From the NCBI GenBank assembly GCA_964463515.1, contig CAYXDR010000001.1, positions 1-25,272 of the forward strand: 25,272 bases of DNA, in the 5' to 3' direction. The notes beneath the pieces were generated by a model. It was not told the DNA's origin, did not search any database, and was given only the letters and a program-made list of their open reading frames with translations. This document shows, in pieces, positions 5,457 to 21,884 of the stretch; within the stretch, counting starts at the first letter, position 1, and every line of letters starts with the position of its first letter. The DNA is from an uncultured Desulfobacteraceae bacterium (GTDB taxonomy: Bacteria; Desulfobacterota; DSM-4660; Desulfatiglandales; Desulfatiglandaceae). The position numbers and the translations under genes are program-made.

Positions 5457-8400
5457 TATCGCTATCCTTTTTCAATCGTTCTTGAAGAGAGGAGATATGA
5501 ATCTTGAAGATCTTGTTCTCCAGTTCGCCGGCCCCGGGGTTCAAAGTCGGCCCGAGCGAATAGCATTCGCCTCTGTTCAGTTTATTGAGGCGCGCTATCC
5601 ATGTTTCAGCTTTCTCATAACTACCTTGCTCCAGAATCCTTGCGTATTCTTTGACCTCAGTCTCTGCTGGTTTGAAAAAGAGCTTATGGGATGCCTGAAA
5701 AAGACGATCACGTTCTTCGCCCTTGAGATTACTCAGGGTCTGAGTGGCGAGAATCAAAGAGAGGCCGAACTTACGGCCTTCGGTAAGAAATTTCCCCAGG
5801 GGTGCATCTAGTCGATGGTCGAGATTCTGGATTTCGTCCAGAACGATGGGCAGGGGCACATCTTTTCGGCCTGAATTCGCGGCGTAATCATACAGATCCC
5901 ACAGAATGAACTCCGTCGCGATCCGGGCGATGTCCCTAGGAACGCCTGCCAACTGGAGGATATTTGCCCTGACCTCGCCGGAACCATACAACCTGTCCCA
6001 GTTCCCGGCCTCATCCTGCCCGAATAGCTTCATATGCACCATCGGACTCAATTTGTTGGCGAGGGTGAGCCCAGATGCACCCTGTTCCTTCAGCCGTTCC
6101 AGCAGCGCGGGGAATCGGAACTCCGCCCCCTCTTCGTCCAGTCCTGCCGCGATGGTTTCAATCAACACCGCCCGCTGCTGTTCCCCAACGTTCGAGTAAA
6201 CCGAATTGATCACCGTGGCGATGCGCCCCCCTACTGTGTGCGAATCTTCCGGTATGGGATCGAATCCAGTAATTCGCTGCTCTTGCTTTCGGAACGGGTT
6301 AATGGGCAACGGCTTTTGACGGACCAGGTGGGTCTCGGGCTTCAAGATATCGACGACTACGGGCTCCAGATGGTCGGGTAGAAACCCGTTGGTGTAATCG
6401 ACGATGATGGAGTTCTGGCCATTCAATCCCATTTCCAGGAGCAAGGCTTGAATCGCGTAGGTCTTTCCTACTCCGGATTTACCAAAAATAAGGATATGGC
6501 GATTGGTCAGTTCCGGATGCCCGAATTCCCAGTATATCTCCCGTTTGGCATCCGTTACGCCCAAGAAGAGGCGATTCGGCGGCGTGCGAGTTACAGTGGT
6601 CGATATAGGGGAGGTAGTTTCACCCTTTTCTAATGATTCCCCGCCCTCCTGTTGGGAGCCGGGCGTCCCATCATCCTGGTCTTTTGTCTCTGCAGATGCA
6701 GATTCCTCTGCAGGAGAAAGAGTGTCAGAAGGCTCAATGGGTTGTGATGTGGACGCCAAATTTGCGGCCGTTAGCGCTTGAGGAGACGATGTCGGAGGTG
6801 TTTCCGAAGACTTAAGGGGAAGGGCGACAGGGTAGTTGCCGCGGCCGATCCGCCGGATAAGGGCGCCCCCGCAGGAAATGAGCGGAATGGCGATTTCGCA
6901 ACCCTCCTGCTGAAACGACCATACTTCTACCGTTTGAAAGAAGTCGCTATTGTAATAATCGGTGGGTTCCGTCCATATCGTGAGTGCCGCCGCCTTCCAT
7001 TGAATCCGAAACCGCCCTTCGCCCAATGATTCCAGCGCGGTGGTAGCCAATTCAAGCTCCGCATTTTCCACCACTGCCTTGCTGGCGATCAACCGTTGTA
7101 GCTGAGCCCACCAGAAACGTTGATCAAAACGGAAAATCGGACTTGAGCCACTAAACCGGTAAGCGGCCTGATTCGATTCACCGCCTTTGGGCCTAAAACG
7201 GGCAACCAGATGATGCAATCCGTTCTCGAGCTGGGACCGGGCCTTCTGGATATGGCGATTGATATTGCTAGAGATTTTGCATTCCAGAATGGTCGCATGG
7301 ACATCGATGAGCCCATCTTCGGCCAGCGACGCGCTGATTCTTAAGAGATCGGGATACATTTCCCGCCCGCCGCCAATGCTTGTAAACCAGTGGGGAAAGG
7401 CGTCTAGCACGACTAATTCGTCGCAAAGGGTTGGGCCGTTGTGCGCCATTACCGGCAAGCAGCGCCGCACTAGGGCATAGGCAATCAAATCCCTGACCTG
7501 TTCGCCTCTGCCTGTAGCCCGTACCAGAGAGATGCCGGAGAGCTTCCGGGCTTCCCGAACAAGAAATCGCGCCGCGTTTTCGGAATCCACTGGCTCCCAT
7601 GGACCGAACAGGTTGTTGACCCTTTTCTGGATCATCTTTTGTACATCTAGCAGGCTCGCGCGTTCAGTAGAGAGGGTGTAGTTCAATTCACCATGCGTGC
7701 CGACCCCGGAGGCAAAACCGATGATCTCCCTTTTACCCTCACTCTGAGCGTCAAGGCTCCCTTTTTGGATCAGCCGTGTGTCCACCGACGGGTCCAGGCA
7801 AAGGACCCATGAAGCATTCCGGTGCATCTGATCCACTATTTTTGCCCAGGGCGTGAAATCGCTCTGGCTGAGGACGATGTGCTCCCGGTCAGGGGGAACG
7901 TCCGAACTCCACAAGCGAACACTTAATTCTGAATGGAGTGCAGCCAGCCGGAACCGCCGGTTGCTGATGATGCGTGATCGGAGGTTTGGGAATGATTGGC
8001 GCTTGTCTTCGCACCGGGGCGCTTCTAGAATGGGAAACTTGAGAAGGTGATCGAGATCCGGTTTATATGGAGAAGTCTTTTCATAATTTAAAGACGGTTC
8101 GCCGGTATCCATAAAACGGGTGAGGACAGCGATATCGACGTTCGCTGCTCCATTTTTCATCAGGATCAAGTAATCGTCAGGCTGGGTGATCACCTTCTGC
8201 GAAACGGAAAGACGGCAGTTTTGATAAAATTCATAGCGCGTGGCCCCTTCAGCTGGATCCCAGCGTTTTCTCCATTCGCTAAGCCACCGGGAGACCTCGC
8301 CGCTTTCTGCTACGTGCATGAAAAGGGAGAGGGAAAGATGGTACGGTGGATAATCCCGGGCTTCTTCGGCCCGTTCCTTCTTTAATTTTTGGTGGAGAAA

Positions 8401-10821
8401 ATCATCTACCCCGGCGATGATCGCCTGGATGTTGGCCGGGTTCAACACGACCAGGGATATACCGTCTTCTGCATGGGGATAGATCCGCGCATATTCCTTG
8501 AGGATTTGGGAAATGACCCGTGATTCGCGGGTTTCCCGAAACAGCGCTGCGTCCTTGATGTCGTCGTCTTCGGGCGTGTCGTACTGCTGAAGGATTTTCG
8601 AGGAAAGCGGTCCGCTTTGGGCGGGCGGTTTTCCCACAAGGTGAATGTGGCCAAAGGAAGCGACTCGGGTGTCCAGCGCCCCGGTTGGAGTCGAAACGAG
8701 ACCGAACAACGGATAGTTGATGGTGGCTAGGTCGCAGATGTCCCGCCAGGTATTTTCAGTAATTTTGGTGCTGCTGTCGTCGTTCAGAAAAAACGTCGCC
8801 CGTTCCAGCCACGCATGGGCTAGAAACGCTTCCCGGTGATTGAGCATGCCCATGAGGGCGGGGTGCAAGGCGGTCACAGCGGCATGAGGGACAAACCGCG
8901 CCCAGGGAAAATTGGCGGCCTCTTCTGCCTTCGGTTTTTCGGTCAGCAAAAACGCCTTGTAAACAATGGGCCGGAATCTCTGAAATTCCGTTTTCTGGAT
9001 CAAATTTTGGATCACGTTTTCATATCGGTAATACAACCGACTGCCGTCGATCCAATGATCCTGAAGGGCGGAAAAGTACCCTTCATCGACCATCGCCCCC
9101 AAAAATTTGGCATAGGCGTCAGACAGGTCCGCTATCCCCAGCTTGCTCAGGTCTTTCAGGTCGATGTTCTGCAAGTTTTCAAACAGGTTGGCAATCGTCA
9201 GTTTGCTTAGCCCCGCACGAAGCACCCGGTGGATTTCGGTCTCGTCCGGCGCGAAAAACAGTTCAGGGTAGTGCTGAATGTGGTATACTGGCAGCCAGAA
9301 ACTGGGCTTCTCGACTTCATGGATCGCCCTGGCCATGTCCAGAAGATTCCGAAACGGATGGGTTTCCGGAAGCGCCCACTTGAATTTGCGGCGGACGCTG
9401 AGGCCTCTGATGTCTGATTTGAAGAGAATGTCAAACTGGAAATGGGGAACCGCGGTTTTTGTCTGGCCAAAAGGAAGGCTATCCATATCCAGCAATCCGG
9501 AGGAAAACTCGGCGTTGTCTTTCCCTTCTTCGGATTCCGGGGCTATGGGGCCGATGTATTTTTCCAGAAATGCGTCGATGCCCCCCAGCAACCCCCGTGC
9601 GAGCTCCTTGTTGTCGTTGTCGAAATCAACAAATTTTAAACCTCTGAGATAAATTCCCTTCAACGCATCAAAGGGTTGGATGGGGGATTTCTTTTTCCGT
9701 GTGCATTGAAATCTAAAATCGATGAGGGTCTGCCACAGTGCGGTTAAAATCGCTTCCAAAGGCGGACCATGAAGGGTTTTGAAGCCCTTGGGTTCTTTGA
9801 TTTTGTCCTCTTTGCCCTCGTCCTCGTCTTCCTCAAGTTCAGGTTCAGGCTGCGTATAGGTGTATCCGAGGATTTCATCCTTGAGCACGGCGAAATCGAA
9901 ATGGAGCAGCCGCCTACGGGCTTCTGGATCGTTGTACTCAACATAGATTTTGATGCAATCGAGGAGTTCATCTTCGCCCCCGAAGGCACCGCGAAGGTCG
10001 AGCGTAGGCTCTTTGTTCGGCCGGACCCGGAAGTCTTCCACTTTTTGGATGGCTTTTTTTCTGTCGTTCTCGTTGAAATATTTCTGATAACTAAAAAAAT
10101 CGATGGCAGCTTCAACATATTTTTTCCACTTGCTCCCTTTCATCTTGTGGAGAAACGGAAGCCCCCAGAAGGACAGGTTGCCGTAAAAAGCGGTCAGGGC
10201 GGCGTAGCTATCCATGACGCTAGTAAAATCGATCCATTCCAGAAAATCGGATATGCGAATCAAGTCGCCGGCCGCATGACGGCGAAGGGTTTCCAGGAGT
10301 TCTTCCATCGCCTCCAAGTGGGTCTCTTCCGGATCGATTTGCTTGTCGTACAAAAACCTTTCCAGCCAGCCCTTGAACCGGCTTTGCATCTCTTCTTTCC
10401 AAATTGTGTCTACCCCTACCTGATAAAAGTCTTCCAGACTGCCCTGGTCCGTAGCCTGCTCGACTCCAACCAGCATCACGATCAGCCCATCCTTCCCGGA
10501 TTCAGGTGTCCACTCAAGGTTTCTGTAATGCGTGAGCCGGTTTTCCGTGTCCACCCACCCGGCACTTTTGATCTGCTCCAAAATCTGTCCATCTGCCGTT
10601 TCTTCCCATTGCCGCCAGAGCTTGTAAGCGACTATGAATTGGAAGTCGATGTCTCGTTTGCTTTTTAGCCAGTATTCAGAGAGTTCGTTCCCAACTTCTT
10701 TGACCGCCGCGGGCGGTAGGGAGGAAAGAAACACGCGGAGTTCGCGGGTGTTGCGGTTTTTGAGGATAGGATGACATAGGGTTTTCAGATAAGTCAGAAG
10801 ACTCCGTGTAAAATAACGCAT
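5449..10821 (-). CDS. sspH: DndH(DptH)/SspH-like restriction protein with a PD-(D/E)xK nuclease motif and a C-terminal HerA/FtsK-type ATPase, 1790 aa
   Basis: C-terminal HILIFGKSGVGKT Walker A (6460-6483), IIVDYTNGF, IVLDEIQNL Walker B, and EGRKFGLSLILATQ (arginine finger and sensor of HerA/FtsK). YPDLL...ILECK lies at 7276-7353. Its size and third position after F- and G-like genes fit DndH/SspH. Confidence 0.72.
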   Translation of the reverse strand: MRYFTRSLLTYLKTLCHPILKNRNTRELRVFLSSLPPAAVKEVGNELSEYWLKSKRDIDFQFIVAYKLWRQWEETADGQILEQIKSAGWVDTENRLTHYRNLEWTPESGKDGLIVMLVGVEQATDQGSLEDFYQVGVDTIWKEEMQSRFKGWLERFLYDKQIDPEETHLEAMEELLETLRRHAAGDLIRISDFLEWIDFTSVMDSYAALTAFYGNLSFWGLPFLHKMKGSKWKKYVEAAIDFFSYQKYFNENDRKKAIQKVEDFRVRPNKEPTLDLRGAFGGEDELLDCIKIYVEYNDPEARRRLLHFDFAVLKDEILGYTYTQPEPELEEDEDEGKEDKIKEPKGFKTLHGPPLEAILTALWQTLIDFRFQCTRKKKSPIQPFDALKGIYLRGLKFVDFDNDNKELARGLLGGIDAFLEKYIGPIAPESEEGKDNAEFSSGLLDMDSLPFGQTKTAVPHFQFDILFKSDIRGLSVRRKFKWALPETHPFRNLLDMARAIHEVEKPSFWLPVYHIQHYPELFFAPDETEIHRVLRAGLSKLTIANLFENLQNIDLKDLSKLGIADLSDAYAKFLGAMVDEGYFSALQDHWIDGSRLYYRYENVIQNLIQKTEFQRFRPIVYKAFLLTEKPKAEEAANFPWARFVPHAAVTALHPALMGMLNHREAFLAHAWLERATFFLNDDSSTKITENTWRDICDLATINYPLFGLVSTPTGALDTRVASFGHIHLVGKPPAQSGPLSSKILQQYDTPEDDDIKDAALFRETRESRVISQILKEYARIYPHAEDGISLVVLNPANIQAIIAGVDDFLHQKLKKERAEEARDYPPYHLSLSLFMHVAESGEVSRWLSEWRKRWDPAEGATRYEFYQNCRLSVSQKVITQPDDYLILMKNGAANVDIAVLTRFMDTGEPSLNYEKTSPYKPDLDHLLKFPILEAPRCEDKRQSFPNLRSRIISNRRFRLAALHSELSVRLWSSDVPPDREHIVLSQSDFTPWAKIVDQMHRNASWVLCLDPSVDTRLIQKGSLDAQSEGKREIIGFASGVGTHGELNYTLSTERASLLDVQKMIQKRVNNLFGPWEPVDSENAARFLVREARKLSGISLVRATGRGEQVRDLIAYALVRRCLPVMAHNGPTLCDELVVLDAFPHWFTSIGGGREMYPDLLRISASLAEDGLIDVHATILECKISSNINRHIQKARSQLENGLHHLVARFRPKGGESNQAAYRFSGSSPIFRFDQRFWWAQLQRLIASKAVVENAELELATTALESLGEGRFRIQWKAAALTIWTEPTDYYNSDFFQTVEVWSFQQEGCEIAIPLISCGGALIRRIGRGNYPVALPLKSSETPPTSSPQALTAANLASTSQPIEPSDTLSPAEESASAETKDQDDGTPGSQQEGGESLEKGETTSPISTTVTRTPPNRLFLGVTDAKREIYWEFGHPELTNRHILIFGKSGVGKTYAIQALLLEMGLNGQNSIIVDYTNGFLPDHLEPVVVDILKPETHLVRQKPLPINPFRKQEQRITGFDPIPEDSHTVGGRIATVINSVYSNVGEQQRAVLIETIAAGLDEEGAEFRFPALLERLKEQGASGLTLANKLSPMVHMKLFGQDEAGNWDRLYGSGEVRANILQLAGVPRDIARIATEFILWDLYDYAANSGRKDVPLPIVLDEIQNLDHRLDAPLGKFLTEGRKFGLSLILATQTLSNLKGEERDRLFQASHKLFFKPAETEVKEYARILEQGSYEKAETWIARLNKLNRGECYSLGPTLNPGAGELENKIFKIHISSLQERLKKDSDND

Positions 10822-10844: not shown

Positions 10845-12527
10845 TTATTTATCAGTGCTCTTTTCAGAAAACGGGTTTTCAATCAACGACACAGCATCTG
10901 ACAGCGGGGTCATAAAACCGGTGGCCAGCAACTTTTCTTCCAGCCATTGTTTGTGCCCGGCTGGCGCGCTCAGCTTCTGGTCGGGGTAGGTCCAGGCGAT
11001 GGCGTCGTTGAGCAAGGTTCCGGAAACCGCCGCGCCGTAGTGGCGGTAGAGGGCTTTCAGGAAGGTGGTCAAGCGCATCCGTTCGCCCGGCGGGATCAAG
11101 GCCAGTACAAAATACCGAAGCAAATTTTCTTGCAGCACGAAACGGGCGCCTGGCCCGGTTTTAGGGGCGATCAGGCCGATTTTCTTGCCCAATTTCACAA
11201 AAAGAGCCGTGCCCTGTTTGTCGGCATTCCGGTAGGTTTTTTCGCCGCTCTTTAGCGTCTGAATGCGACGGGTCCGGAGTGCGGCATGGAACATTTCCTT
11301 CACCCTGACCAGATTTTTCCGGGCGGCGGTTTTGAGAGCCCGGTCATCCAATTCGGGGTTCGTGATGATCCAGGCGTAGGGCTGGAGAGCGTCTTCGTCA
11401 TGAAGACCGGGATTGCCCCCCCAGTAGCGCCCGGCTTGGGCCGACAGGCTGCGTAGGACCTGGAACACGCAGCAAAGTTTGAGCATCTCGATTTTTTCCA
11501 CAGGGTCTAATAGCGCGGCGCTAATGTTTCGCAGTTCTATGGCGAACAGATAGGCTTCCGGCCAGCTTTCTTCCGGGCACCAGCCACATGTCGCACCTTT
11601 GGTCTCCCGGTCGATTTCTAAGGATGCGTCGGTCTCATTTTTTTCAATCCACGATGCGATACTGTTCAATATCGGGGCAGGTTTGCGAGATAGAAAGTCT
11701 TTGAGATTGTTTTCAATCTCCTCTTGGAGATTCTTCGCAGCGCCTGGGTAGCCCGCCCGTTCTTCAAATTCAAGGAGCTCGGGGGAATCTATCAGGCGGA
11801 AGAGATTGCATAGCTGAAGGTATAGGAGTTCGCCACCGCGGGCGAGGAAATCATGTTTGGAAAATGAAAACATTCTATTTTTCCAGGCTTGATGCCAATT
11901 CAAATTCGGTTCTTTCTTGCCTCTATTTTTTTCCCAAATGGCTTCTCCTGCGATTAATTCGGGAGCTAGTGGAATAAATGAATGTGCGGACCAGCCTCTA
12001 TTTCCCGAAACCCCTATAAATCCCATTAGAACTTGCTCAATTAATTCGATAGCGTCGCTTTTTGATAGGGATGGACTAGTATGTAAATGGTGTTTTAGAT
12101 TTGAAACTAGCTCTTGATATTTTTCAATGTGGCTTTTGTGCCTTCCTTCAACACCTGAAATCCCTAAAAACGAAAACAGCTTTATAATTATGTGCATTCT
12201 AGGATAATAAATCAAAGGTTTACCTGGGTCGACTTCTTGTAATTCACTAACTCTTGGAAAGCCTTTCCATTTATCTGAGTCTTTATACCCAAGCATATAA
12301 TTCGTTCCAATTTTTTTATCTGAAATAAAAATCAGCATGAATTCCACAAGATATTCGAGCTCTGTTTGATCATCTCGGACTCGTCGTCCAAACAATCGTA
12401 TAGCAGGATTAGCATCAGCGTTTTCATCCTCACCAATGTTTGGAAACTGCCTAACGTTACCGTTCGAAATTCTAGCGGATGACTTCAATTCCAATCCATT
12501 TTGCCATTGAAAATAATCCGATGGCAT
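10845..12527 (-). CDS. sspG: DndG(DptG)/SspG-like protein, 560 aa
   Basis: It lies between the F-like and H-like genes (gaps of 49 and 23 bp). The C-terminus (FLKALYRHYG...LEEKLLATGFMTPLSDAVSLIENPF) resembles the winged-helix-type tail seen in G-position proteins of DndFGH-like modules. Assignment rests on recalled motif plus synteny. Confidence 0.6.
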   Translation of the reverse strand: MPSDYFQWQNGLELKSSARISNGNVRQFPNIGEDENADANPAIRLFGRRVRDDQTELEYLVEFMLIFISDKKIGTNYMLGYKDSDKWKGFPRVSELQEVDPGKPLIYYPRMHIIIKLFSFLGISGVEGRHKSHIEKYQELVSNLKHHLHTSPSLSKSDAIELIEQVLMGFIGVSGNRGWSAHSFIPLAPELIAGEAIWEKNRGKKEPNLNWHQAWKNRMFSFSKHDFLARGGELLYLQLCNLFRLIDSPELLEFEERAGYPGAAKNLQEEIENNLKDFLSRKPAPILNSIASWIEKNETDASLEIDRETKGATCGWCPEESWPEAYLFAIELRNISAALLDPVEKIEMLKLCCVFQVLRSLSAQAGRYWGGNPGLHDEDALQPYAWIITNPELDDRALKTAARKNLVRVKEMFHAALRTRRIQTLKSGEKTYRNADKQGTALFVKLGKKIGLIAPKTGPGARFVLQENLLRYFVLALIPPGERMRLTTFLKALYRHYGAAVSGTLLNDAIAWTYPDQKLSAPAGHKQWLEEKLLATGFMTPLSDAVSLIENPFSEKSTDK

Positions 12528-12576
12528 TTTTGCAGCTCCTTTCCCCTATTTAGATCTAATATTGACTTGTTCTGGC

Positions 12577-15500
12577 TTACACAATTTCCAAAAAACCGTC
12601 CGACAGCATCACGCGAAATTGTTCCAGTTTTCCATCATGATTCAGTTGAATTAACCGCATCTCTTCGTGAGATTCGCTAGGGAGTCGGGCTGTGAGTAAA
12701 TTTTTAAACCACTCAAGCCGATCAAGGTAACCCAGATTCAACCGCTGTCCGAGTTCCCCTTCGCTGCGCAACAGCACGAAATCTAGAAATGGCAGATCAA
12801 GGGTCAAGTGGATTTCAGGGAAATAACGGTCTCGCAAAACAAGATGATATCGCTGTGGCCTGAATGTTTGGTAGATTTCCTCTAGAACCAGCTCAAAATT
12901 TGAAAAGGCGATCTCCGCAAGAAGAATCTGGACGCTCTGGCGAAGTGCTTCGTTACGTCGGTTGAGAGTAATGAACAGTTCGTTTCCGCGCCGGGTCTCC
13001 GGGATATAAAAACCCGTGTACTGCTCCAGTAGCACGTGCAACACTTTTTGCTTCAACTCTTCCCGACGTGTAGGCGTTAGTTTCGTCGGCGAGCATTGCC
13101 AGGATTCGGTTTCTACCAGCATGGGGGAGCCAGTGAACCCGCCTACGAAGTCCTTCTCACTCCCTGCTTCTGCAAATGCGCCGAACACAAAAAAGAGTCG
13201 CCTGAACTCCTGGCGGAAACGGGCGCCGACGGCCTCGGACCCATAGCCGGAAAGCGTCATTCCCCGAAGGCTCTCGAAAACTGGTTTCAGCGTGTCCGGC
13301 AGTAGAGGGGTCGGGCCCTCTTCGAAAGTCCACAGCACCCTGTCTAACGACAAAAAGGGTCTGGCGCCCATCTCTATCGGCATCAGACATTGAATAGCTT
13401 TGAGTCGCTGGGCCTTTTCATCTATAGAAGCGCCGTGAAACCCAAAGAAGCGATTGTAAAACAAATATGCGTTGACAGGCGGGGGCTTAGGGCTTTCAGC
13501 TATTTCCCGAATGCGCCCACAGTCTAGCCCGCCCGTCAGGCTATATGCTAGATGAGCCGACACCTGCCGCAAGGTCAATCGTTTGCCGTATTCATACAGC
13601 AGGCGATAAATCAAGGCGATCCGTTCCGATGTTATTTCATAGCTCTCCCGAATTGCTTTAAGATTCATCTGAACGGGGCAATGGGCATAAATATCGCACG
13701 ACCGGCACCCGTCCCAATTCTCGTTATCGACGAGCCGATGAAAAAGTTCCCGGGAGATTTGAAGGTTGTCGAGCTGCGACAGGTTGATCAGGACAAAGGG
13801 CACGCCAAGGTCCTTGAATTTCGTGGGTTCTTTTTCCCGGAGAAGTCCTAGAAGACTGTTGCCGATTTTGATTTCTGTGAGACCGTAGGCTGGGGCACAC
13901 GCTTCTAAGATCTCCAAAAGACGACCCGTGTTGGAAATGATCAGCCACCGCCCATCTCCTTGGGCAGCTCGGTTTAGAGCCCTTGCAGCTTCTTCGTCGG
14001 TCAGCTCACTCAAGTCCTTGATCAGGTGTATTTTATAGCCGTTGATTTGTTTTTCTTCATGGGACCCCAAGCCGGATTCTAAAGGCTCTGACATGTCCTT
14101 TTTTTCCAGCCTTTTAAAGATTTCCAGGCAAATCGTTGATTTGCCGTCCCCGGCATGCCCGGTCAGGATAATGTTCCCCCCATCGGTTCCTGTCAGCTTT
14201 TCCCACACCAGATCGGTCACGGGCCAGGCGACATGGATGGATCCGAAAAACAGGCTCCGAGCTTGGGCCTCAGCCAGCGCATTACGATTGTCGGCGGTGG
14301 TGTTGTGAAGCTGGTTCAAATAATCCAAGAAATTGCCTGCGGTCTCTAGCGCGTTTTCCCTTGCAGGCGGTGCTTCAGGGCTATACACGTGCCATTTTTC
14401 CGCCGATTCCGCCGTTTGTGGCGTCACTTGGACCGAGTCCTCATCGCTGAAAACAAAATCGAATTCATCTCTCATTTCGTTGATATTTTGAAAGCGTGCA
14501 TCACGAAACGGCTGAACGGCCTTGTGAAGCCAGAGTGAAAGCTCCTCTGGAATGTCCTTGCGATAGGAAGCTGCGAAACGCGGCGTGGCGGTAAGGGCAG
14601 GGGTCCCGGAATAAGGACTGACGCCGCACAGCCATTCAAACAGGGTGACGCCTAGGGCAAATAAATCTCCACTTTCGCAAAACTCATACTCGGCGCCCTG
14701 GAACAAATCTGGTGCCACATAGGCGTCTGTTCCCATATAGGGCCCTACGGATGGAACGCCCGAAGCACCGAAGTCGATTAATACAGGGGTGCCGTCCTCT
14801 TTGAGGAGTATGTTGTCGGGTTTGATGTCGTTGTGCAAAATGATGGTTTGGCGCGAGGGATCGGCATGCAAAGTCGCAATTCCTTCCATCAGACAAAATG
14901 CGACATGCCGGAAAAGGGGCAGTTCCGGGCGAATGCTGTTGTCGATCCGGTTTCGCAGCGGATTGCCGGAGACCAGTTCCAGAACCAAGTAATAGCGGCC
15001 ATCTGCCAATTGGTTGAAGGTTTCATAGCCGACAATACAGGGATTGGATACGGTTTTTAGGGCATCCCTTTCGGCGAAAATCCGATCAAGAGCCGAATCC
15101 TGGTGGTACAATTTTATCGCAACCCAGTTGTCGCTGCCCTGAAGCGCTTTGTAAACTTGGGAGTCGCGGCCTTTCCCGATCCATTCTTGAATGGTGTACA
15201 CACCGAAAATATCGCCTGGTTTTAGGATTCGATTGGATTCTCGGTGGGTTTCTTCAGCGATTTCTTTCAGTTCAAGCTGTAACTCGCCGATTTCCTGGGG
15301 CCGGTCCTTTCGTTGGAATTGGATCATCATGACGATGTCTGTTCGAAGGGATTCAGGAATGCCGATTTTGGCCAGTTTTGATTCGATAGATTCATACACG
15401 GATTGAGCGTCGGATATCAGATCCGTGGAATACTCGAAAGGCGGTTTGCCGATGAGCAGTTCATACGCTATAACCCCTAAACTGAAGATGTCCGTTGCCT

Positions 15501-17217
15501 CCGCAAAAGGCTGATGATGGTAAAGTTCCGGGGCGAGGTAAGGGGACCTCTGAAGTTGGAGGTCGTCGGGAAGAACCGTCAACCGGTTATCTTCAGGCAA
15601 GTAGGACAGATCGAAATTCATCAGTTTTGGCGTAGTCCCAAACATCATGATGTTTTCCGGGGTTAAATTGCGATGGACAATGCCTTCCTGATGAACAGCT
15701 TCAAGACCTTTGGCAATGCCTCGTATGATAGGCAAGGCCTTTTCAAGAGAAAAGGGGCCGCTTTTCTTCATCACATTGGCGAGCGTACCTTCTTTTCGAG
15801 ACCAGTCTGAAGCTTCGATAATCAGGCCTTCTTCATGATAAATGTCCCAAACCTTCAAAATGTTGGGATGATCACTTATCCTAGTCAGTGCTTTGAGACT
15901 GTTTCGGCTTTTGTTCCGCTGGTTCTCCCGTTCTTCCTGGCCTAGAGTGGGATCGATGGAAAAAATGCGGAGCCGCTTGACGGTTTGGAGCTGATTGCTG
16001 GTAGGTCTTGCCAATAGTTCAATGAGATGCTGCGAGTCAGTGAGATTTTCCAAAATCTCATAGCCCGGAATCTCGAGGCCCTTCCGCCGAGGGGATTGGG
16101 CTTCGTTGCGGAGGCGTTCCGCAATCTGCCTAGCTTGGGCGGTGGTCAGTATGGAATTCGGCTGCCCTAGGCAGCGTTTGAAATATTTCGTAAAGGTGGC
16201 AATGCTGTCGAAGGTAGGGGCTTTTTTTTCCGTTTTCGCTCCATCGGCGTTGTGGACCGTAGCATCCGGGTTTGTCAGAAGAACAATAGATTGAAAGGGA
16301 TAATCTTTAGGTATAAAGGGAAGTTTCTTTCTGCAAAACCCTCGCAGAACTTTTGCTTTGTAGTTGTTGGAGCGATGCGGATCTGTACATGGGGTCTGTT
16401 CGGGCCCCCTGAACCATTCGTAGGGGCGAACTTCGATTTCTCCGAACCAGTGTTTAAGTTCGACAATGGCTGTACAAAAGGATGAGACTACAATAAGGTC
16501 GCATTCAAGGTATTGGCTGGTAGAAGGGTCGTAAAGATCGAAGTTGGGGATTAGTTCAATTTGCTTTCCGAGAGCAGCGAAAATTTGTTTGAGAGCATTT
16601 TTTTCATGAGGAAATTTGCTTTTAATGTCCATATATTTTCTTCCTGATGCCATCATTACACGTGCTTTTGAATCACTAGTGATATCTGAATAATCAACAC
16701 TTGATTGCTCTTCCAAATTACTCTTGATTGCTTCAACATGGTATTTTGGAGAAAATATTGGTCCGGAAGAAACAATTTGAGATATTATTTCTTCTAATTT
16801 CGACTTGATAACATCACGATATCTTTTTGTTTTCAAAAGATTATACACATCAGGATTCAAAAATGAATAATTTATAATTTCATTGATCAATCTTGGTGTA
16901 AATCTTTTACGTTTGTTATATTCATTTTCTTTTCCTTGAAACACCTTGTGATTCCAAAAATTTGATGTGATAAGATGGTAATATGGATATTCAGGAAAAC
17001 ACTCATCTTCATTGGTGAATTTTTTCCATAAATATCTAAACATATTGATCAGTTCATCATCAAACGGAAAGCGATTCTCACGATTCGGATTTTCTTCAAT
17101 TAAATAACAGATTGAAAGAAGCAACACAAATTTATTTGGATTTGCTTTTTCAGATGACTTCCAAACGGATATCCTATTAATTTGTTTTAGTAATTCATCT
17201 ATTTGCAAATCAGACAT
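12577..17217 (-). CDS. Multidomain fusion: SBD-like domain + NERD nuclease + pseudokinase + Ser/Thr kinase + DndF/SspF-like P-loop domain, 1546 aa
   Basis: Residues about 1-145: NKFVLLLSICYLIE...EYPYYHL...FW. About 196-345: FPHEKNAL, ECDLIVV, IVELKHW (NERD). Kinase 1 has HRN(515-517) and NFD(534-536). Kinase 2 has IGKGRDSQVY, VAIK702, HNDIKPDN (H795) and DFG (D815). The C-terminal part has IILTGHAGDGKS (K1026), IKDLSE, ISNTGRL and a C..C.....CP cluster. The start overlaps the sspD stop by 19 bp. Confidence 0.8.
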   Translation of the reverse strand: MSDLQIDELLKQINRISVWKSSEKANPNKFVLLLSICYLIEENPNRENRFPFDDELINMFRYLWKKFTNEDECFPEYPYYHLITSNFWNHKVFQGKENEYNKRKRFTPRLINEIINYSFLNPDVYNLLKTKRYRDVIKSKLEEIISQIVSSGPIFSPKYHVEAIKSNLEEQSSVDYSDITSDSKARVMMASGRKYMDIKSKFPHEKNALKQIFAALGKQIELIPNFDLYDPSTSQYLECDLIVVSSFCTAIVELKHWFGEIEVRPYEWFRGPEQTPCTDPHRSNNYKAKVLRGFCRKKLPFIPKDYPFQSIVLLTNPDATVHNADGAKTEKKAPTFDSIATFTKYFKRCLGQPNSILTTAQARQIAERLRNEAQSPRRKGLEIPGYEILENLTDSQHLIELLARPTSNQLQTVKRLRIFSIDPTLGQEERENQRNKSRNSLKALTRISDHPNILKVWDIYHEEGLIIEASDWSRKEGTLANVMKKSGPFSLEKALPIIRGIAKGLEAVHQEGIVHRNLTPENIMMFGTTPKLMNFDLSYLPEDNRLTVLPDDLQLQRSPYLAPELYHHQPFAEATDIFSLGVIAYELLIGKPPFEYSTDLISDAQSVYESIESKLAKIGIPESLRTDIVMMIQFQRKDRPQEIGELQLELKEIAEETHRESNRILKPGDIFGVYTIQEWIGKGRDSQVYKALQGSDNWVAIKLYHQDSALDRIFAERDALKTVSNPCIVGYETFNQLADGRYYLVLELVSGNPLRNRIDNSIRPELPLFRHVAFCLMEGIATLHADPSRQTIILHNDIKPDNILLKEDGTPVLIDFGASGVPSVGPYMGTDAYVAPDLFQGAEYEFCESGDLFALGVTLFEWLCGVSPYSGTPALTATPRFAASYRKDIPEELSLWLHKAVQPFRDARFQNINEMRDEFDFVFSDEDSVQVTPQTAESAEKWHVYSPEAPPARENALETAGNFLDYLNQLHNTTADNRNALAEAQARSLFFGSIHVAWPVTDLVWEKLTGTDGGNIILTGHAGDGKSTICLEIFKRLEKKDMSEPLESGLGSHEEKQINGYKIHLIKDLSELTDEEAARALNRAAQGDGRWLIISNTGRLLEILEACAPAYGLTEIKIGNSLLGLLREKEPTKFKDLGVPFVLINLSQLDNLQISRELFHRLVDNENWDGCRSCDIYAHCPVQMNLKAIRESYEITSERIALIYRLLYEYGKRLTLRQVSAHLAYSLTGGLDCGRIREIAESPKPPPVNAYLFYNRFFGFHGASIDEKAQRLKAIQCLMPIEMGARPFLSLDRVLWTFEEGPTPLLPDTLKPVFESLRGMTLSGYGSEAVGARFRQEFRRLFFVFGAFAEAGSEKDFVGGFTGSPMLVETESWQCSPTKLTPTRREELKQKVLHVLLEQYTGFYIPETRRGNELFITLNRRNEALRQSVQILLAEIAFSNFELVLEEIYQTFRPQRYHLVLRDRYFPEIHLTLDLPFLDFVLLRSEGELGQRLNLGYLDRLEWFKNLLTARLPSESHEEMRLIQLNHDGKLEQFRVMLSDGFLEIV

Positions 17218-18092
17218 GTCTCTGCCTCTTCCTCTTCCCTGATATTATTCAGAATGCTATCTCCTTCTGTTCGGAAATCCATATTTTGAAAATGATCAAG
17301 AAGTTTTTTCTTTCCTAATGATGTTTTATTAGTAACCTTTGAAGCTGCGTTTTTAAGGATTTCATCTCGCCTATCAATGAGCTCCCTTAGCGTTTCACCT
17401 TCACTCCAGGTATAATTTTTTTTCCTGCTATTGATATTTTTGTAATCAAAATTAGATTCCCTGAAATTGTCATAAAATTCCTCGAATTGACAGGCCTTCT
17501 GAAAACACTCAGGATGGTTGTCATATAACGCAATCCATTCTTCTTTCCTTTGAAAAAAGCAAAAATAACAACCCGATCTACTTCTCCATTTATAGTAATC
17601 AGGAATCCCAACATCTGTTTCCGCCAATATTTGAAAAACATCTCTTTTTACTATATTATCCTCAATAAATGGATAAAATGGCACAATATTGTTTTTGCCA
17701 TGGGGATCATAGCCCATTCTGTCTTCATCAGCTCGCAAGGCAATATAAATATAGGCAAAATCATTGCCTATATATTTTTCAAAAGGTTCAATTTTGAGTT
17801 GCCGGGTACACCAACGATTTGTTGGTGAAGGAAGACATCCATAATATATTCTTAGGAGCGCAGTAAAACGATCCGTTTGCGGTTTATTTTTCGGAAGCCT
17901 AATAATTCTGATCTGAAGATAGGCCTCCATGCGCTCCAAGTATTCATATGTTTCTGGCAATTCATGGCCCGTATCCAAAAAAACATATTCTATATTCGGA
18001 ACTCGATCTTTCAGATACACCGCCAATGCGGCGCTGTCTTTCCCGCCCGACAAAGCCAGAATATGTCTTTTATTATCGCTTTTTCTTGGCAT
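17199..18092 (-). CDS. sspD: SspD-like PAPS-reductase-family (PP-loop) DNA phosphorothioation enzyme, 297 aa
   Basis: PP-loop LSGGKDSAAL (about 18035-18052), VFLDTGHELPETY, RWCTRQLK, RSGCYFCF and a C-terminal CLIC. It is adjacent to DUF4007 and SspC-like ATPase genes. A GGGAAG SD-like sequence lies upstream. Confidence 0.88.
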   Translation of the reverse strand: MPRKSDNKRHILALSGGKDSAALAVYLKDRVPNIEYVFLDTGHELPETYEYLERMEAYLQIRIIRLPKNKPQTDRFTALLRIYYGCLPSPTNRWCTRQLKIEPFEKYIGNDFAYIYIALRADEDRMGYDPHGKNNIVPFYPFIEDNIVKRDVFQILAETDVGIPDYYKWRSRSGCYFCFFQRKEEWIALYDNHPECFQKACQFEEFYDNFRESNFDYKNINSRKKNYTWSEGETLRELIDRRDEILKNAASKVTNKTSLGKKKLLDHFQNMDFRTEGDSILNNIREEEEAETCLICK

Positions 18093-18413: not shown

Positions 18414-21400
18414 TCAATCTTTTTCCCCGCTCTTCGTTTTATCACCCAACAAATGTTCACCCATCATTATTAGTAATGATTTGAGTTGATCAGGATCATT
18501 TCCCTCTATCAATCGAGCCATCTTTTCTTTCACACCTGCCATCTCCTCCTTATTCATCCAGACGATTTCGCTTTCCATAGTTCCGTCCGGGCGAGTTAAC
18601 GAAATCAGCCGCGCCTCTTTGCCTTCTTTACCTTCTGGCAACCTCCGCCGCTCCTCTGCCGCTAATCGCTCCAGCGCCAGAAAACGCCGGGCAAGGTCAT
18701 GCATGCGAGTTGAAAACCCACTCAAATCCGCATCGCTCCAGGATTCCACCAGCCGCTGACTGACGATGGTCCCAATGGCGGATACCCACTCATTGTCCGT
18801 TCCTCGGTTCCGCGCCAAGATTGCTACCAGCGGCTTCAAGCGTTTCTCGGAACACCGCCTTACCAAGGGCGTAGCTCGTTCCTTCAGGTCTTCACGAAAC
18901 GTCTTGAGATCTCCCCGGCTACCGAATGCTTCCTGAAGGACCATTCGGATCCTGTCCTCCAGCCGCTCGAATGCCTGGGCTAGCTCCCCCACCGCATTGC
19001 GGAATCGATTTTGGAAATCTTCGACAGCTTGAGCGTCGAAGTCAGGCGTGCCATCAAAGGCTGAAACACCGACAGCCTTTGGCAGATCCGTGAACAGCAA
19101 ATCAATGGGGTCTTTTGAATGGAGCAGTGCCTGGAGCAGGTTCCGGGCCTCCCGGCTAACCGATCGGGTCTCTTTCACGTAGGCCGGCAGCCGGTCCGCA
19201 AACTGGACCAGCGGGCCCACAATGTTGACCATGGTGGAGTTTCGCAGTTGGCGATCCTCCTGGAACGGGCTGCTATTCAACAACTCCTGGTAAACTCGGA
19301 AGACTTTCCCCTGAATGCCCAATGGCGAAAATTTGCGCACGTCAAAATATTCCGGCCGCTTGACCATCAGTTCCAGATCTTCCGGTGTCAGATACGGGAT
19401 GAACGCTCCCTCCTGATACAGCGCCGTATCTTCGGAGCGGACCAGGAGATACAGGCAGATTAAGATAGGGATCGGGCCATCCTTCATTCCAAAGGGCGGC
19501 TTCCGAAGCATGGCGATCAGGTTAGGCAGGTGCAACAGCGCGTCCTCGGTCCGGTCCAAAGCTGTGTCAAGGGCCTGCCACGCCGCATAAAAATGAGTAT
19601 CCGGTTCCGGCGGGAAAAACCGCCATGCCATTTCGCCATCGTGTCGATGCAGTCCCTCGGCCGCCAACATCGTTCGGTAAATGGCTACTTCCGGGCCTGT
19701 CCCGCTCAGCCCCAGTTTCTCCTTGGTTTCCCCGTTCAGCATGGCTTGGATGAGTTCCCGCTGTGCACGGGCCGCAGCGGAGGACAACCGAGCCCGGTTA
19801 ATCAACTCGTTCCGAATCACCGGACAGCTTTGATACGTCTCGTCGCACAAGCGGGAAAGCAATCCCGATAAGTCCCGTATGGAACTCAAGTCATACCGGC
19901 GTTCTCCGCTTTGCCAGACCACTTCAGGGTTGCCAGGGGTATACAGATCCGCCAGAAACCGCTTTAGCTGCTCCTCTGCGGCACCGGCTCGAAAAAGGGC
20001 CTCGCGCCGGGCCACACCGTCCCGTTCTAGTTCAGGCGCCTCTGTCAGGATGGCGGTAGCAGCCGCAGCTTCCAGTGCCCGTTCCCGGAGCCGGTCCTCC
20101 TCCCGGGCAAAAGCAACCAGAACGGGTCGTCCGTCGTCAGTCTTGCCCGGAAATCCATTCAATGGCCCATCATTGCCGAAAACATAAAGCAACAGGCCAT
20201 CCGCTTCCTCCGCTTTAAAAGCCGTCACGGCTTCCGCAACATCGTCCACAGCACACCAATGCCGCTTAAAATGGCGCAGCGTGCCAGTGCGGTAGGAGTG
20301 GCGCGAAGCAGTCAAAGGCAACATGGGCGCCGCCTTCTCCAAAAGCTCCGCTAGAGGTCGTGCCGCGATGGCTGGTTTATGCCGGTCGATAGCCTCCGGG
20401 ATGTCAATGTCGCTTCCCTCCCATAGCCGGAATTCATCGGCATATTCCCGGTAAATCAGCATCCCCTTTTCCGATAAAGGGCCCAGAGATGACTCCAGGG
20501 CCTCGTCGGCGTCCATTCCGGGCTGCGATACCGCAAAGCGCAGCAGGTCGCGGGAAGCCCGAAACCCAGACGGGCCAGAGATCAGATTTAAAAGACCGAT
20601 GGTTTTGAGCAGGTTTCTCTGAGGCCTGGGCAGGTTGCGGGCACCATCGACTATATCGTGAATTTCAAACCAGCGGCTGGCCCCTGGGCGGCTCAGCGCC
20701 ATGGAAGGAGCCGCCCCGAGGAAATAGTCATACAGCCGCTCAGGCCCGAAGGTCGGTGCGCCATATCCTGTCTTGTCCAGCTCCCGGTTTCCAAGGAACG
20801 CCGGCAGGGCGTGCGGTTCGCCGCCGCAAAGAAAGGCGAACAGCGTCCGATCGTTTTGAGCGAAACGGGTGCACAATTCCGGCAGCAGGGCGGCGGTCAG
20901 CGGATGGAGCGGGAAAAAGCGCGCCATTGACTTCGCATCGGCCCCGGCGATTTCCGTAACACCTAAACGATCCGTTTCCCGCTGATAATGTTCGGCCCAG
21001 TCCTTAACAGAGTGGAACGCATCCGGCGCTCGGTCCGGCCGACCTAACGCTTCTCCGATGAAATCGAGCATCTGGATGCGCGGCTCCACAAAGGAAATGT
21101 CCTCGAATCTCCCCTGAACTTTTCCCCATTCCTGTCGCTGAAGACGGCTGAGGCCAGCGCCATATGCTTCGAAAGCCTGGTGGAGGCATACCCAGAGATA
21201 AATGTTTTCGCTTTCCGCCAGGGTCTGGACAATGAACAGGTCGCCCCGGCCCGGATGCCGGGCCAGGTATTCGAGGTTCTTTCCGAACTCGTCGATAACG
21301 ACGGCTAGGGGCGACCGGCTGATCCGGCCTGCTTCCTGGAATAACGCCACTAGTCGGGCGGCATCGAGTTCTTCACCGGAAAGATAATCGGCAATGTCGG

Positions 21401-21884
21401 CAGCCAACAGGTTGAAGGCTTTTTTGGTGGGGTCGGATTTACCAGCAGCGCCCACGGCCCGGGCTAAGGCCGCTCCCAGAGTTCGATTGACCGGCTCGAA
21501 GGCAGCGGTGGCGGGAACCCGAAAGAATCCCTTGGACTTGAACCGCCGCTTTTTCATTGTTTCCATCAGTTGCGCCGACAGCGCGCTATCCTTCCGCTCC
21601 AGCATGTTTCGGGCGGTGCGAGCTTTGGATTCTTTGATTGGATCGCCGCAAAGGGAAAGCAGAAAATGGACAAAGGCCGATTTCCCCATGCCGTATGGGC
21701 CAGTCAAGGACCAGGCGGATGCCCTTTGGCCATTGAGTCCAGCAGAAAGCCGATGAATGATCTCCAGCCCCTTTCCAGTCAGAAGATACCGATCAAGGGT
21801 TTCCGGGTCGTTCAGATCCCTTTCCAGGTTGACCGAGCGGGCGATTTGGGCATCGGGGCGAACAATTTCTGATAGTTTCATCAC
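18414..21884 (-). CDS. sspC: SspC-like P-loop ATPase, 1156 aa
   Basis: RSVNLERD N-terminus, Walker A TGPYGMGKS (about 21678-21704), Walker B VVIDEFGKNLEY, GRFEDISF, FPLHP and RFAQNDRTLFAFL. It sits between DUF4007 and the PAPS-reductase gene. The start is coupled to the upstream stop (GTGATG): either GTG at 21884 or ATG at 21881. Confidence 0.85.
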   Translation of the reverse strand: MMKLSEIVRPDAQIARSVNLERDLNDPETLDRYLLTGKGLEIIHRLSAGLNGQRASAWSLTGPYGMGKSAFVHFLLSLCGDPIKESKARTARNMLERKDSALSAQLMETMKKRRFKSKGFFRVPATAAFEPVNRTLGAALARAVGAAGKSDPTKKAFNLLAADIADYLSGEELDAARLVALFQEAGRISRSPLAVVIDEFGKNLEYLARHPGRGDLFIVQTLAESENIYLWVCLHQAFEAYGAGLSRLQRQEWGKVQGRFEDISFVEPRIQMLDFIGEALGRPDRAPDAFHSVKDWAEHYQRETDRLGVTEIAGADAKSMARFFPLHPLTAALLPELCTRFAQNDRTLFAFLCGGEPHALPAFLGNRELDKTGYGAPTFGPERLYDYFLGAAPSMALSRPGASRWFEIHDIVDGARNLPRPQRNLLKTIGLLNLISGPSGFRASRDLLRFAVSQPGMDADEALESSLGPLSEKGMLIYREYADEFRLWEGSDIDIPEAIDRHKPAIAARPLAELLEKAAPMLPLTASRHSYRTGTLRHFKRHWCAVDDVAEAVTAFKAEEADGLLLYVFGNDGPLNGFPGKTDDGRPVLVAFAREEDRLRERALEAAAATAILTEAPELERDGVARREALFRAGAAEEQLKRFLADLYTPGNPEVVWQSGERRYDLSSIRDLSGLLSRLCDETYQSCPVIRNELINRARLSSAAARAQRELIQAMLNGETKEKLGLSGTGPEVAIYRTMLAAEGLHRHDGEMAWRFFPPEPDTHFYAAWQALDTALDRTEDALLHLPNLIAMLRKPPFGMKDGPIPILICLYLLVRSEDTALYQEGAFIPYLTPEDLELMVKRPEYFDVRKFSPLGIQGKVFRVYQELLNSSPFQEDRQLRNSTMVNIVGPLVQFADRLPAYVKETRSVSREARNLLQALLHSKDPIDLLFTDLPKAVGVSAFDGTPDFDAQAVEDFQNRFRNAVGELAQAFERLEDRIRMVLQEAFGSRGDLKTFREDLKERATPLVRRCSEKRLKPLVAILARNRGTDNEWVSAIGTIVSQRLVESWSDADLSGFSTRMHDLARRFLALERLAAEERRRLPEGKEGKEARLISLTRPDGTMESEIVWMNKEEMAGVKEKMARLIEGNDPDQLKSLLIMMGEHLLGDKTKSGEKD

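Follow-up and report, generated by a model that had tools for sequence, protein, structure and literature searches.

The window analysed here, a stretch of 25,272 nucleotides from an uncultured Desulfobacteraceae bacterium, contains a long gene in which a protein kinase module appears joined to a subunit of a phosphorothioate (PT)-based restriction system, which raises the questions of what this protein is and what its kinase might contribute to restriction. We consider it highly probable (about 95%) that the product serves as F subunit in an SspFGH-type PT restriction system coupled to SspBCD, with a sulfur-binding domain (SBD) and a PglW/MAD6-type module preceding its core. This architecture is already known from the literature and from hundreds of genomes; the protein is a member of it and adds no new kind of system.

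Reading frame and gene neighbourhood

The initial annotation had placed the gene at positions 12577-16632, but the open reading frame extends 195 aa further upstream, and the N-terminal SBD had thereby been left out (Table 1). Without an internal stop, the frame encodes 1546 aa and combines SBD, NERD domain, pseudokinase, kinase and SspF core on one polypeptide. Such a frame could in principle be an artefact, either of mis-assembly or of read-through of a separate SBD gene, kinase gene and sspF, and two observations could be taken in this sense: a near-identical protein from a metagenome-assembled genome is annotated in the database as only 1359 aa, and Met196, the residue at which SBD-less family members start, is a plausible internal start. 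The 1359-aa annotation reflects an alternative choice of start codon only. Moreover, the frame is open over 1546 codons both here and in a 95.5% identical relative (locus L004) with an ORF of identical length, and the same fused architecture is shared by over 200 proteins of numerous phyla, finished chromosomes included, and is therefore not an assembly artefact. The open frame and the recurrence in complete genomes rule out mis-assembly and read-through as the source of the fusion, and we give this explanation virtually no chance.

According to PADLOC profiles, the genes follow the order sspBCD-F-G-H on one strand, which is kept in related loci. The entire cassette, i.e. sspB-sspC-sspD, the fusion gene, sspG, sspH and the second SspB-like (B') and SspC-like (C') genes, is conserved across phyla; the order F-G-H was found in every locus with room for these genes, usually after sspBCD. 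Among the nine large ORFs scanned in the window, pglX, pglY and pglZ were not found.

Table 1 Features of the locus and of the F fusion protein. Positions refer to the window, residues to the 1546-aa protein.
Feature	Position	Strand	Residues	Evidence or remark
sspB (DUF4007)	21881..22849	-		Pfam DUF4007 4e-79; PADLOC SspB 3e-89
sspC	18414..21884	-		PADLOC SspC E 0, 1117 bits
sspD (PAPS-reductase-like PT writer), directly upstream of the fusion gene	17199..18092	-		PADLOC SspD 2.3e-92
Whole F fusion ORF	12577..17217	-	1-1546	start shares 19 nt with sspD stop
Sulfur-binding domain (SBD), wHTH	16783..17196	-	8-145	PDB 8H0L SBDHga E 1.2e-16; NF045808 E 8.7e-8
NERD PD-(D/E)xK nuclease domain and C-terminal extension	16078..16632	-	196-380	Pfam NERD 7e-8/8e-9; PADLOC PglW N-terminus 3.8e-12
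Pseudokinase (kinase 1)	15232..16077	-	381-662	no G-loop, HRN515-517, NFD534-536, APE562-564 kept; well-folded in model
Hanks Ser/Thr kinase (kinase 2), active-looking	14398..15231	-	663-940	Pfam Pkinase 3.4e-58
Variable linker, kinase 2 to F core, predicted disordered	14338..14397	-	941-960	pLDDT <50 at model residues 732-754; high entropy
SspF core: four-helix N-extension and P-loop domain	13768..14337	-	961-1150	PADLOC SspF 3e-35; model pLDDT 87.5; invariant columns
Enlarged all-helical lid	13012..13767	-	1151-1402	Cys cluster C1171, C1174, C1180; invariant R1213/R1217; fits published DndF description
C-terminal alpha+beta domain of F core	12580..13011	-	1403-1546	model secondary structure; full-length homology to stand-alone F proteins
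sspG-like, directly downstream of the fusion gene	10845..12527	-		PADLOC SspG 7.7e-16; position conserved in all surveyed loci
sspH/dndH-like, 1790 aa, C-terminal HerA/FtsK ATPase	5449..10821	-		PADLOC DndH 1e-54, SspH 9e-19, mad8 4e-16; Pfam DUF87/TrwB
Second divergent SspB-like gene (B')	4617-5456	-		after H in 35/35 evaluable loci
Second SspC-like gene (C'), 1443 aa	209-4540	-		after H in 33/35 evaluable loci

Domain composition of the fusion protein

The earlier proposal of an in-frame fusion between a PglW-type NERD-pseudokinase-kinase block and an SspF-type P-loop subunit was borne out by matches far beyond chance to PADLOC profiles of PglW (1e-58 over aa 198-975) and SspF (7e-34 and 3e-35 over aa 962-1293); the SspF homology of the C-terminal part, on which the proposal had been made to depend beforehand, is thus present. 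All six PADLOC SspF models, which comprise 525-607 positions, match aa 950-1546 (best E-value 3.2e-35), whereas no PADLOC DndF model matches this region at E<0.01, so that the core is not a DndF sensu stricto. The length of these models agrees with the initial estimate that a stand-alone F protein has about one third of the size of the fusion, as do the kinase-less, SBD-less F proteins of loci L049, L056, L058, L065 and L069, which align only to residues about 914-1546. In the structure model, and judged from the invariant residues N1096, R1213 and R1217, the core has the DndF/SspF fold of Rakesh et al. 2024 (PMC10853773), with an Asn at Walker B, a four-helix N-extension, the alpha+beta domain and a lid that carries the conserved Arg and for which they give a length of about 200-250 aa. 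Landmarks of the P-loop domain are Walker A (T1019-T1028), K1067-D1068 in strand 2 and N1096 at the Walker-B position; the Walker A motif GHAGDGKS (1020-1027, including K1026) is invariant across 121 homologs. A solved F homolog was not found by PDB sequence search or by Foldseek with the F-core model, which returned generic AAA+/P-loop matches with a best TM of 0.24.

The N-terminal SBD, which probably tells more about mechanism than any other part of the protein, was established by sequence searches against NCBIfam and PDB. Pfam did not report PF26340, which homologs carry, for aa 1-200 even at E-values up to 10. The residues equivalent to the SBD pocket are N28, K29, Y77, P78 and H81, of which K29, P78 and H81 are conserved across the family, and given these three residues and the homology to a solved SBD, the domain qualifies as an SBD with predicted PT binding. 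N28 stands where 83 of 88 family SBDs have the pocket His (H25 in SBDHga), which we count against the mechanism considered below. Concerning its distribution, the SBD was present on F only in loci with sspBCD upstream (44 of 44) and in none without; this association, which is non-significant once relatedness is allowed for, in a comparison underpowered with only three independent pairs, is descriptive only. On the tree, 15 gains and losses of the SBD were counted, a figure that is too high because some contigs start within the gene; with evaluable loci only, it drops to 5.

Downstream of the SBD, the NERD catalytic set D...ExK that had been noted ahead of the kinases is intact (D240, E253, K255) and invariant in the family wherever the region exists. 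The other motifs named in the initial annotation were likewise located at the stated residues in full-length numbering, i.e. HRN and NFD of kinase 1 (Table 1) and K702, HND (795-797) and DFG (815-817) of kinase 2, in addition to the Walker A motif. Kinase 1 matches Pfam PK_Tyr_Ser-Thr over aa 427-640, which together with the structure model supports a kinase fold; by its sequence it is a pseudokinase, having lost the catalytic Asp, the Mg-binding Asp and the G-loop. The earlier view of a dead kinase 1 was therefore correct with respect to HRN, NFD and the missing G-loop, but not with respect to the absent Lys, as K414 occupies the likely beta3 position, although this position is not conserved in the 121 family members (40 K, 32 S, 20 Q). 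N534 of the NFD motif is found in 120 of these 121 proteins and the Asp of HRD in only 29. Kinase 2, by comparison, retains its catalytic motifs as had been claimed: among the residues G683, K702, E716, H795-N-D797, K799, N802, D815-F-G, G829-T830 and APD835-837, which vary little or not at all in the family, those at positions 702, 797 and 799 are present in 121/121 homologs and D815 and N802 in 120/121. With a beta3 Lys, an alphaC Glu, HxD-x-K-x-x-N, DFG and GT...APE/D it has the features of a Hanks-type kinase and is predicted to be catalytically active.

Kinase 1 is the most conserved block in the N-terminal half of the protein and equals or exceeds kinase 2 in conservation (mean pairwise identity 46% vs 43%; columns at least 95% conserved, 15% vs 14%); its degenerate motifs (HR-x, N-F-D) are fixed across phyla. 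Invariant catalytic residues in kinase 2 together with an equally conserved kinase 1 are what one would expect if the kinase is functional and its partner fixed. The same data bear on the idea, raised in the initial annotation, that the pseudokinase senses a phage protein. In that case, kinase 1 would act as a decoy to which a phage protein binds, for instance a phage kinase or a kinase inhibitor, and thereby free kinase 2, similar to the integrated decoys of plant tandem-kinase immune proteins; the dead-plus-live tandem layout is compatible with such a role, and defence-disarming phage kinases have been described (PMC13645617). However, an arms-race interface should vary, and the high conservation of kinase 1 thus argues against a fast-evolving decoy sensor, which we regard as very unlikely.

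Relation to known defence systems

Computational analysis by Rakesh, Aravind and Krishnan (NAR 2024, PMC10853773) revealed fusions of wHTH, NERD, inactive and active kinase domains to DndF; they were taken up again in NAR 2026 (PMC12839542), where their kinase module is equated with that of PglW. The domain order of these kinase-fused DndF proteins, including the optional preceding wHTH, is the same as in our protein, which differs in that its core matches SspF instead of DndF profiles and that its gene follows sspBCD. In the main text of PMC10853773, the N-terminal wHTH of the fusions is not identified as an SBD, and SspFGH is never mentioned.

PglW of the Pgl (type 2 BREX) systems shares the NERD domain, the dead kinase and the live Hanks kinase; its C-terminal half consists of a triple wHTH and an inactive STAND domain (PMC12839542), whereas our protein has the F core there. 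The PglW layout proposed initially was thus confirmed, but the MAD6 profile of NCBIfam (NF047741; 386.1 bits over model positions 15-609, E 2.9e-115) scores higher than the PglW profile (NF033442; 192.6 bits). Both scores are below the respective cut-offs of 460 and 990 bits, i.e. the protein is neither a MAD6 nor a PglW according to these profiles, and the F proteins of a deep Pseudomonadota-rich clade (L039, L030, L067, L035) likewise remain below the MAD6 cut-off. When homologs were searched with the NERD-kinase region as query, all those retrieved belonged to the F-fusion family and none bore the name MAD6. By a genome search with NF047741 we reached a bona fide MAD6 (776.7 bits, 1379 aa), in which a NERD-pseudokinase-kinase block precedes an F-core-like C-terminus that matches the core of our protein in BLASTP (8e-11, 23% identity over 229 aa). 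Its gene is followed by mad7, with a weak SspG match, and by a gene whose mad8-bearing product has about 1850 aa, so that MADS shares with the present locus the same type of protein followed by G-like and H-like genes. In contrast, MAD6 is devoid of an SBD and the self mark of MADS is m6A methylation instead of a PT made by SspBCD; the genuine MADS locus (in G040) has mad2/mad5 methyltransferase and specificity genes, whereas the window has sspBCD instead.

With SspF of the Vibrio anguillarum FF-93 SspABCD-SspFGH system, the protein shares its position in sspBCD-F-G-H, the Walker A family and the partner genes, but canonical SspF stands alone, is only as large as the core and carries neither an SBD nor NERD or kinase domains. 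In V. anguillarum, none of SspF, SspG and SspH is dispensable, SspF being required for defence against PT-free DNA, and such DNA is damaged by SspFGH (PMC8092258). Hga, the source of SBDHga (PDB 8H0L; PMC10602919), has a homologous N-terminal domain, and both proteins pair an SBD with a PD-(D/E)xK nuclease; Hga, however, is a PT-dependent endonuclease that attacks PT-DNA, whereas our protein sits in a PT-making host. The study of Hga already noted that one clade among the SBD homologs (3%) carries a fused kinase domain (PMC10602919).

Possible roles of the kinase module

Experimental data are available for two homologous modules: with the K677A substitution in PglW, both autophosphorylation and phage resistance are lost (PMC4365076), and mad6, mad7 and mad8 are each needed for MADS defence in P. 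aeruginosa SMC4386 (bioRxiv 10.1101/2023.03.30.534895). From the PglW mutant and the mad6 deletion we conclude that the kinase of homologous modules forms an integral part of defence and is not spare, and by analogy phosphorylation control of FGH restriction is plausible. The protein might accordingly be the sensing and regulatory hub of an F-G-H(-B'-C') complex, in which the SBD would report the presence or absence of the host PT mark on scanned DNA and the P-loop core would bind nucleotide and dock to G and H. Kinase 2 would autophosphorylate and/or phosphorylate partner subunits, with the conserved pseudokinase as its fixed allosteric scaffold, and phosphorylation would toggle the H nuclease/HerA translocase between a state restrained on self DNA and one active on PT-free DNA; the intact NERD domain may contribute DNA binding or cleavage that is controlled in the same way. 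We put such a phosphorylation switch within the restriction complex, its substrates and direction of control being inferred, forward tentatively, at somewhat below an even chance. In addition to N28 and the non-significance of the SBD-sspBCD association, we count against it that Pfam and PADLOC revealed no partner phosphatase encoded in the window, and that the predicted three-domain model has a pTM of only 0.45, i.e. the domain arrangement is of low confidence and therefore allows no inference on the packing of kinase 1 and kinase 2.

Alternatively, the module could be a back-up abortive-infection co-effector, as proposed in PMC10853773 and PMC12839542; the abortive-infection effector suggested in the initial annotation is this earlier published idea. 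The F core would then sense invader nucleotides or macromolecules, and if a phage inhibitor blocked FGH, NERD and kinase would hit host DNA and proteins and thereby stop or kill the cell. The intact NERD catalytic residues, the lack of a phosphatase in the window that could reverse a signal, the PD-T4-6-type stand-alone defence kinases among the closest PADLOC kinase matches and the apparent toxicity of full-length PglW in E. coli (PMC4365076) are all in line with this proposal. The same applies to the optional nature of the NERD-kinase block, which can be lost within the F family: it is absent from 15 of 53 evaluable loci, and kinase-less SBD-F forms nest inside kinase-bearing clades, an evolutionary dispensability which is as compatible with an accessory effector as with a regulator. 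However, in both tested systems, PglW and MADS, the kinase or its gene was needed for primary defence and not only as a reserve, and the placement of the module between PT reader and F core within the polypeptide suggests intramolecular coupling. We therefore favour the phosphorylation switch and consider the co-effector possible but unlikely.

A more specific version of the phosphorylation switch, in which the SBD couples kinase output to the PT state of scanned DNA and the protein phosphorylates G, H or B'/C', thus licensing restriction only on PT-free DNA, appears doubtful at present. If this coupling were true, the protein would join an epigenetic reader to a protein kinase in a bacterium, and the kinases of MADS and Pgl would represent the same switch in forms that lack a mark reader. 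The locus bears on two questions, namely how PT-based FGH restriction discriminates between self and non-self and which role the dead-plus-live kinase module of the PglW/MAD6 type plays. With PT reader, kinase module and F core in one polypeptide beside the PT writer, it represents a convenient natural construct for asking whether phosphorylation gates restriction.

Gene layout and reading frame of F*

The window represents the complete 25.3-kb contig of a 3.5-Mb MAG and carries every large gene on the minus strand, among them sspBCD, the writer of single-strand phosphorothioate (PT) marks. An sspA or cysteine desulfurase gene is absent from the contig. A gene for a YhcG-type nuclease is located immediately upstream of sspB. 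GC content is 0.35-0.41 at positions 16000-18000 (sspD and the SBD/NERD part of F*), 12000-13000 (F/G junction) and 1-2000 (3' end of C'), and 0.50-0.60 elsewhere. The nearest public relative, a Desulfatiglandaceae MAG, shares 95.5% identity across 20.4 kb; since identity is even along the length (about 90-98% per 500 nt), any mosaicism is older than the split of the two.

Features of the window and of the methylation-associated defence system (MADS) operon used for comparison
Feature	Position	Strand	Remarks
YhcG/DUF1016 PD-(D/E)xK nuclease gene	23523-24668	-	PADLOC PDC-S02, 1e-129
sspB	21881-22849	-	
sspC	18414-21884	-	
sspD	17199-18092	-	
ORF of interest (F*)	12577-17217	-	1546 aa
Sulfur-binding domain (SBD) of F*	16783-17196	-	aa 8-145
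sspG-like gene (G)	10845-12527	-	
sspH/dndH-like gene (H)	5449-10821	-	
Second, divergent DUF4007/SspB-like gene (B')	4617-5456	-	
SspC-like ATPase gene (C')	209-4540	-	1443 aa
MADS operon, genome G040, contig C6	L081:4358-20000 + L082:1-3015		

The initial annotation placed the start of F* at 16632, which is Met196; however, the frame is open as far as 17217 in both the window and a close relative, with the ATG located 19 nt within the 3' end of sspD. The residue numbers given initially were nevertheless right in full-length numbering, as a check of the F* sequence revealed. In the related locus L004:6119-10759 (public protein P0005, 94-97% identical), the public annotation begins at an internal Met, so that the protein of 1359 aa lacks the SBD despite an open frame of 1546 aa. 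Many entries of about 1350-1380 aa in the databases may likewise owe their length to the choice of start site, or may truly lack the SBD. A purine stretch resembling AGGAAG precedes Met196 by 8 nt, and SBD-less members of the family start at the corresponding position, which makes a shorter F* isoform conceivable.

Domain composition of F*

The N-terminal domain, which lay outside the coordinates considered initially, matches both the NCBIfam model of restriction endonucleases that bind PT-DNA (8.7e-8) and the sequence of the SBDHga crystal structure (8H0L; E 1.2e-16). The published sulfur pocket of SBDHga (H25, K26, L75, P76, H79) maps onto N28, K29, Y77, P78 and H81 of F*; the Lys, Pro and His are conserved across the F family, and at position 28, equivalent to His25, F* has Asn where 83 of the 88 members with an SBD have His. 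Judging from these comparisons, the N-terminal wHTH of F* is an SBD, a clear identity of mild added value. The following NERD domain is matched by Pfam (7e-8), and the D...ExK motif noticed before is found as D240...E253-x-K255. As this triad is intact and invariant wherever the domain exists, the nuclease looks active.

Kinase 1 (about aa 381-662) is degenerate, as had been claimed: the glycine loop is missing, and the motifs read HRN515-517 and NFD534-536. Of 121 aligned members of the family, 120 share the Asn that opens 'NFD', and only 29 carry Asp at the HRD position. The claimed lack of a clear VAIK lysine holds in part: F* has a candidate beta3 lysine, K414, but this position is Lys in only 40 of the 121 members (Ser 32, Gln 20). 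Kinase 1 shows no less conservation than kinase 2 (mean pairwise identity 46% vs 43%), and even its degenerate motifs are fixed, which argues against a role as a decoy sensor, a reading we regard as very improbable. The active motifs ascribed to kinase 2 (about aa 663-940) were confirmed: G683, K702, E716, H795, D797, K799, N802, D815-F-G and a G829-T830...A-P-D P+1 segment are retained and invariant or nearly so in the family. Ser/Thr specificity is suggested by the GT motif and the D-x-K-x-x-N loop, which mark it in Hanks kinases. A predicted model of aa 196-949 contains three confident domains whose mutual arrangement is uncertain (pLDDT 85, pTM 0.45).

The C-terminal 597 aa match six of six PADLOC SspF models (best 3.2e-35) and none of the PADLOC DndF models, so that of the 'DndF/SspF-like' assignment the SspF part stands. 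This region is also homologous end to end with stand-alone F genes preceding G and H in other genomes. From this we conclude that the proposed in-frame fusion of NERD, pseudokinase and kinase to an SspF-type P-loop core is correct. As predicted by AlphaFold (pLDDT 87.5, pTM 0.88), the core comprises a four-helix N-extension, the P-loop domain, a lid that is all-helical and about 250 aa long, and a C-terminal alpha+beta domain; a PDB sequence search and Foldseek on the model returned no solved structure resembling it. In the alignment, Walker A is invariant, strand 2 closes with K1067-D1068, and Asn1096 takes the Walker B position; the lid contains R1213/R1217, and C1171, C1174 and C1180 form a Cys cluster. 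These elements have likewise been published for the DndF core (PMC10853773).

Distribution and composition of the cassette

More than 200 public proteins of 1350-1550 aa, mostly labelled only "protein kinase", share the C-terminal core, and relatives are encoded at 263 loci of species-representative genomes spanning Desulfobacterota, Bacillota, Chloroflexota, Planctomycetota, Verrucomicrobiota, Acidobacteriota, Armatimonadota and others. F-G-H are contiguous at all of 72 non-redundant loci, and H is followed by a second SspB-like gene in 35/35 and by an SspC-like gene in 33/35 loci with room for them. This B'/C' pair is retained in different phyla whether sspBCD is present or not, so the module on the restriction side in fact comprises five genes, F-G-H-B'-C'; the conserved eight-gene cassette is a further mild addition.

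F occurs in four architectures: SBD-NERD-pseudokinase-kinase-F, NERD-pseudokinase-kinase-F, SBD-F and F alone. Of the 53 loci that could be evaluated, 44 carry the SBD, all 44 with sspBCD-type genes upstream, whereas three of the nine SBD-less loci have such genes and six do not. Since this association (Fisher p 4e-6, relatedness ignored) includes only three phylogenetically independent contrasts, the restriction of the SBD to sspBCD-linked loci, also a mild addition, is descriptive. The NERD-kinase block is present at 38 of the 53 loci. In the F-core tree, about four changes occur, and the kinase-less forms branch from among kinase-bearing ones, which fits an accessory module that was acquired long ago and underwent losses afterwards. 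SBD-F fusions of about 750 aa in sspBCD-linked cassettes (L050, L051, L055, L057, L060, L062, L063, L066, L068, L070, L072-L074), lacking NERD and kinases, correspond to naturally occurring NERD-kinase deletions.

Relation to MADS and possible mode of action

The F* architecture has been published before and is widely recurrent: fusions of wHTH, NERD, inactive and active kinase to DndF have been described from computational analysis (PMC10853773), the PglW order of NERD, inactive and active kinase is identical to that of a kinase-fused DndF subset (PMC12839542), and a clade of SBD homologs (3%) is coupled to a kinase domain (PMC10602919). The best whole-module match of F* is the NCBIfam MAD6 model (386 bits, cut-off 460), compared with 193 bits for PglW (cut-off 990). 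A genuine MAD6 (777 bits, 1379-aa ORF) was located in G040, a genome of the same phylum, downstream of two mad2-like methyltransferases and a mad5-like specificity subunit. Its C-terminus aligns with the F core (BLASTP 8e-11, 23% over 229 aa) across the Asn strand, Cys insert and lid Arg segment, a half that the NCBIfam and PADLOC MAD6 models hide, since their coverage stops after roughly the first 600-800 residues. Next follow a mad7 protein with a weak SspG match and an ORF with mad8 at its end (about 1850 aa); the window H protein also matches mad8 (4e-16). These similarities indicate that Mad6-7-8, paired with methylation, and F*-G-H, paired with phosphorothioation, are one class of restriction module.

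SspFGH damages PT-free DNA, with each subunit being essential (PMC8092258), and PMC11662687 describes a DndFGH complex that nicks DNA and translocates on it. We tentatively propose, with a probability of roughly 45%, that F* would act as a sensing hub: its SBD would recognise the self mark, and its P-loop core would bind nucleotide and serve as the docking site for G and H. Kinase 2 would turn the sensing state into phosphorylation of F* or its partners and thereby gate the H nuclease/translocase, with kinase 1 as a fixed allosteric partner and NERD adding DNA binding or cutting. The published alternative of a back-up suicidal co-effector (PMC10853773), which would agree with the optional NERD-kinase module and the absence of a phosphatase from the window, seems rather unlikely to us; it fits less well with the need for mad6 and for PglW kinase activity. 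Defence is lost in P. aeruginosa lacking mad6, mad7 or mad8 (bioRxiv 10.1101/2023.03.30.534895), and in Streptomyces PglW K677A autophosphorylation and phage resistance are gone (PMC4365076). By analogy with these systems, control of restriction by phosphorylation, as first suggested for F*, is plausible.
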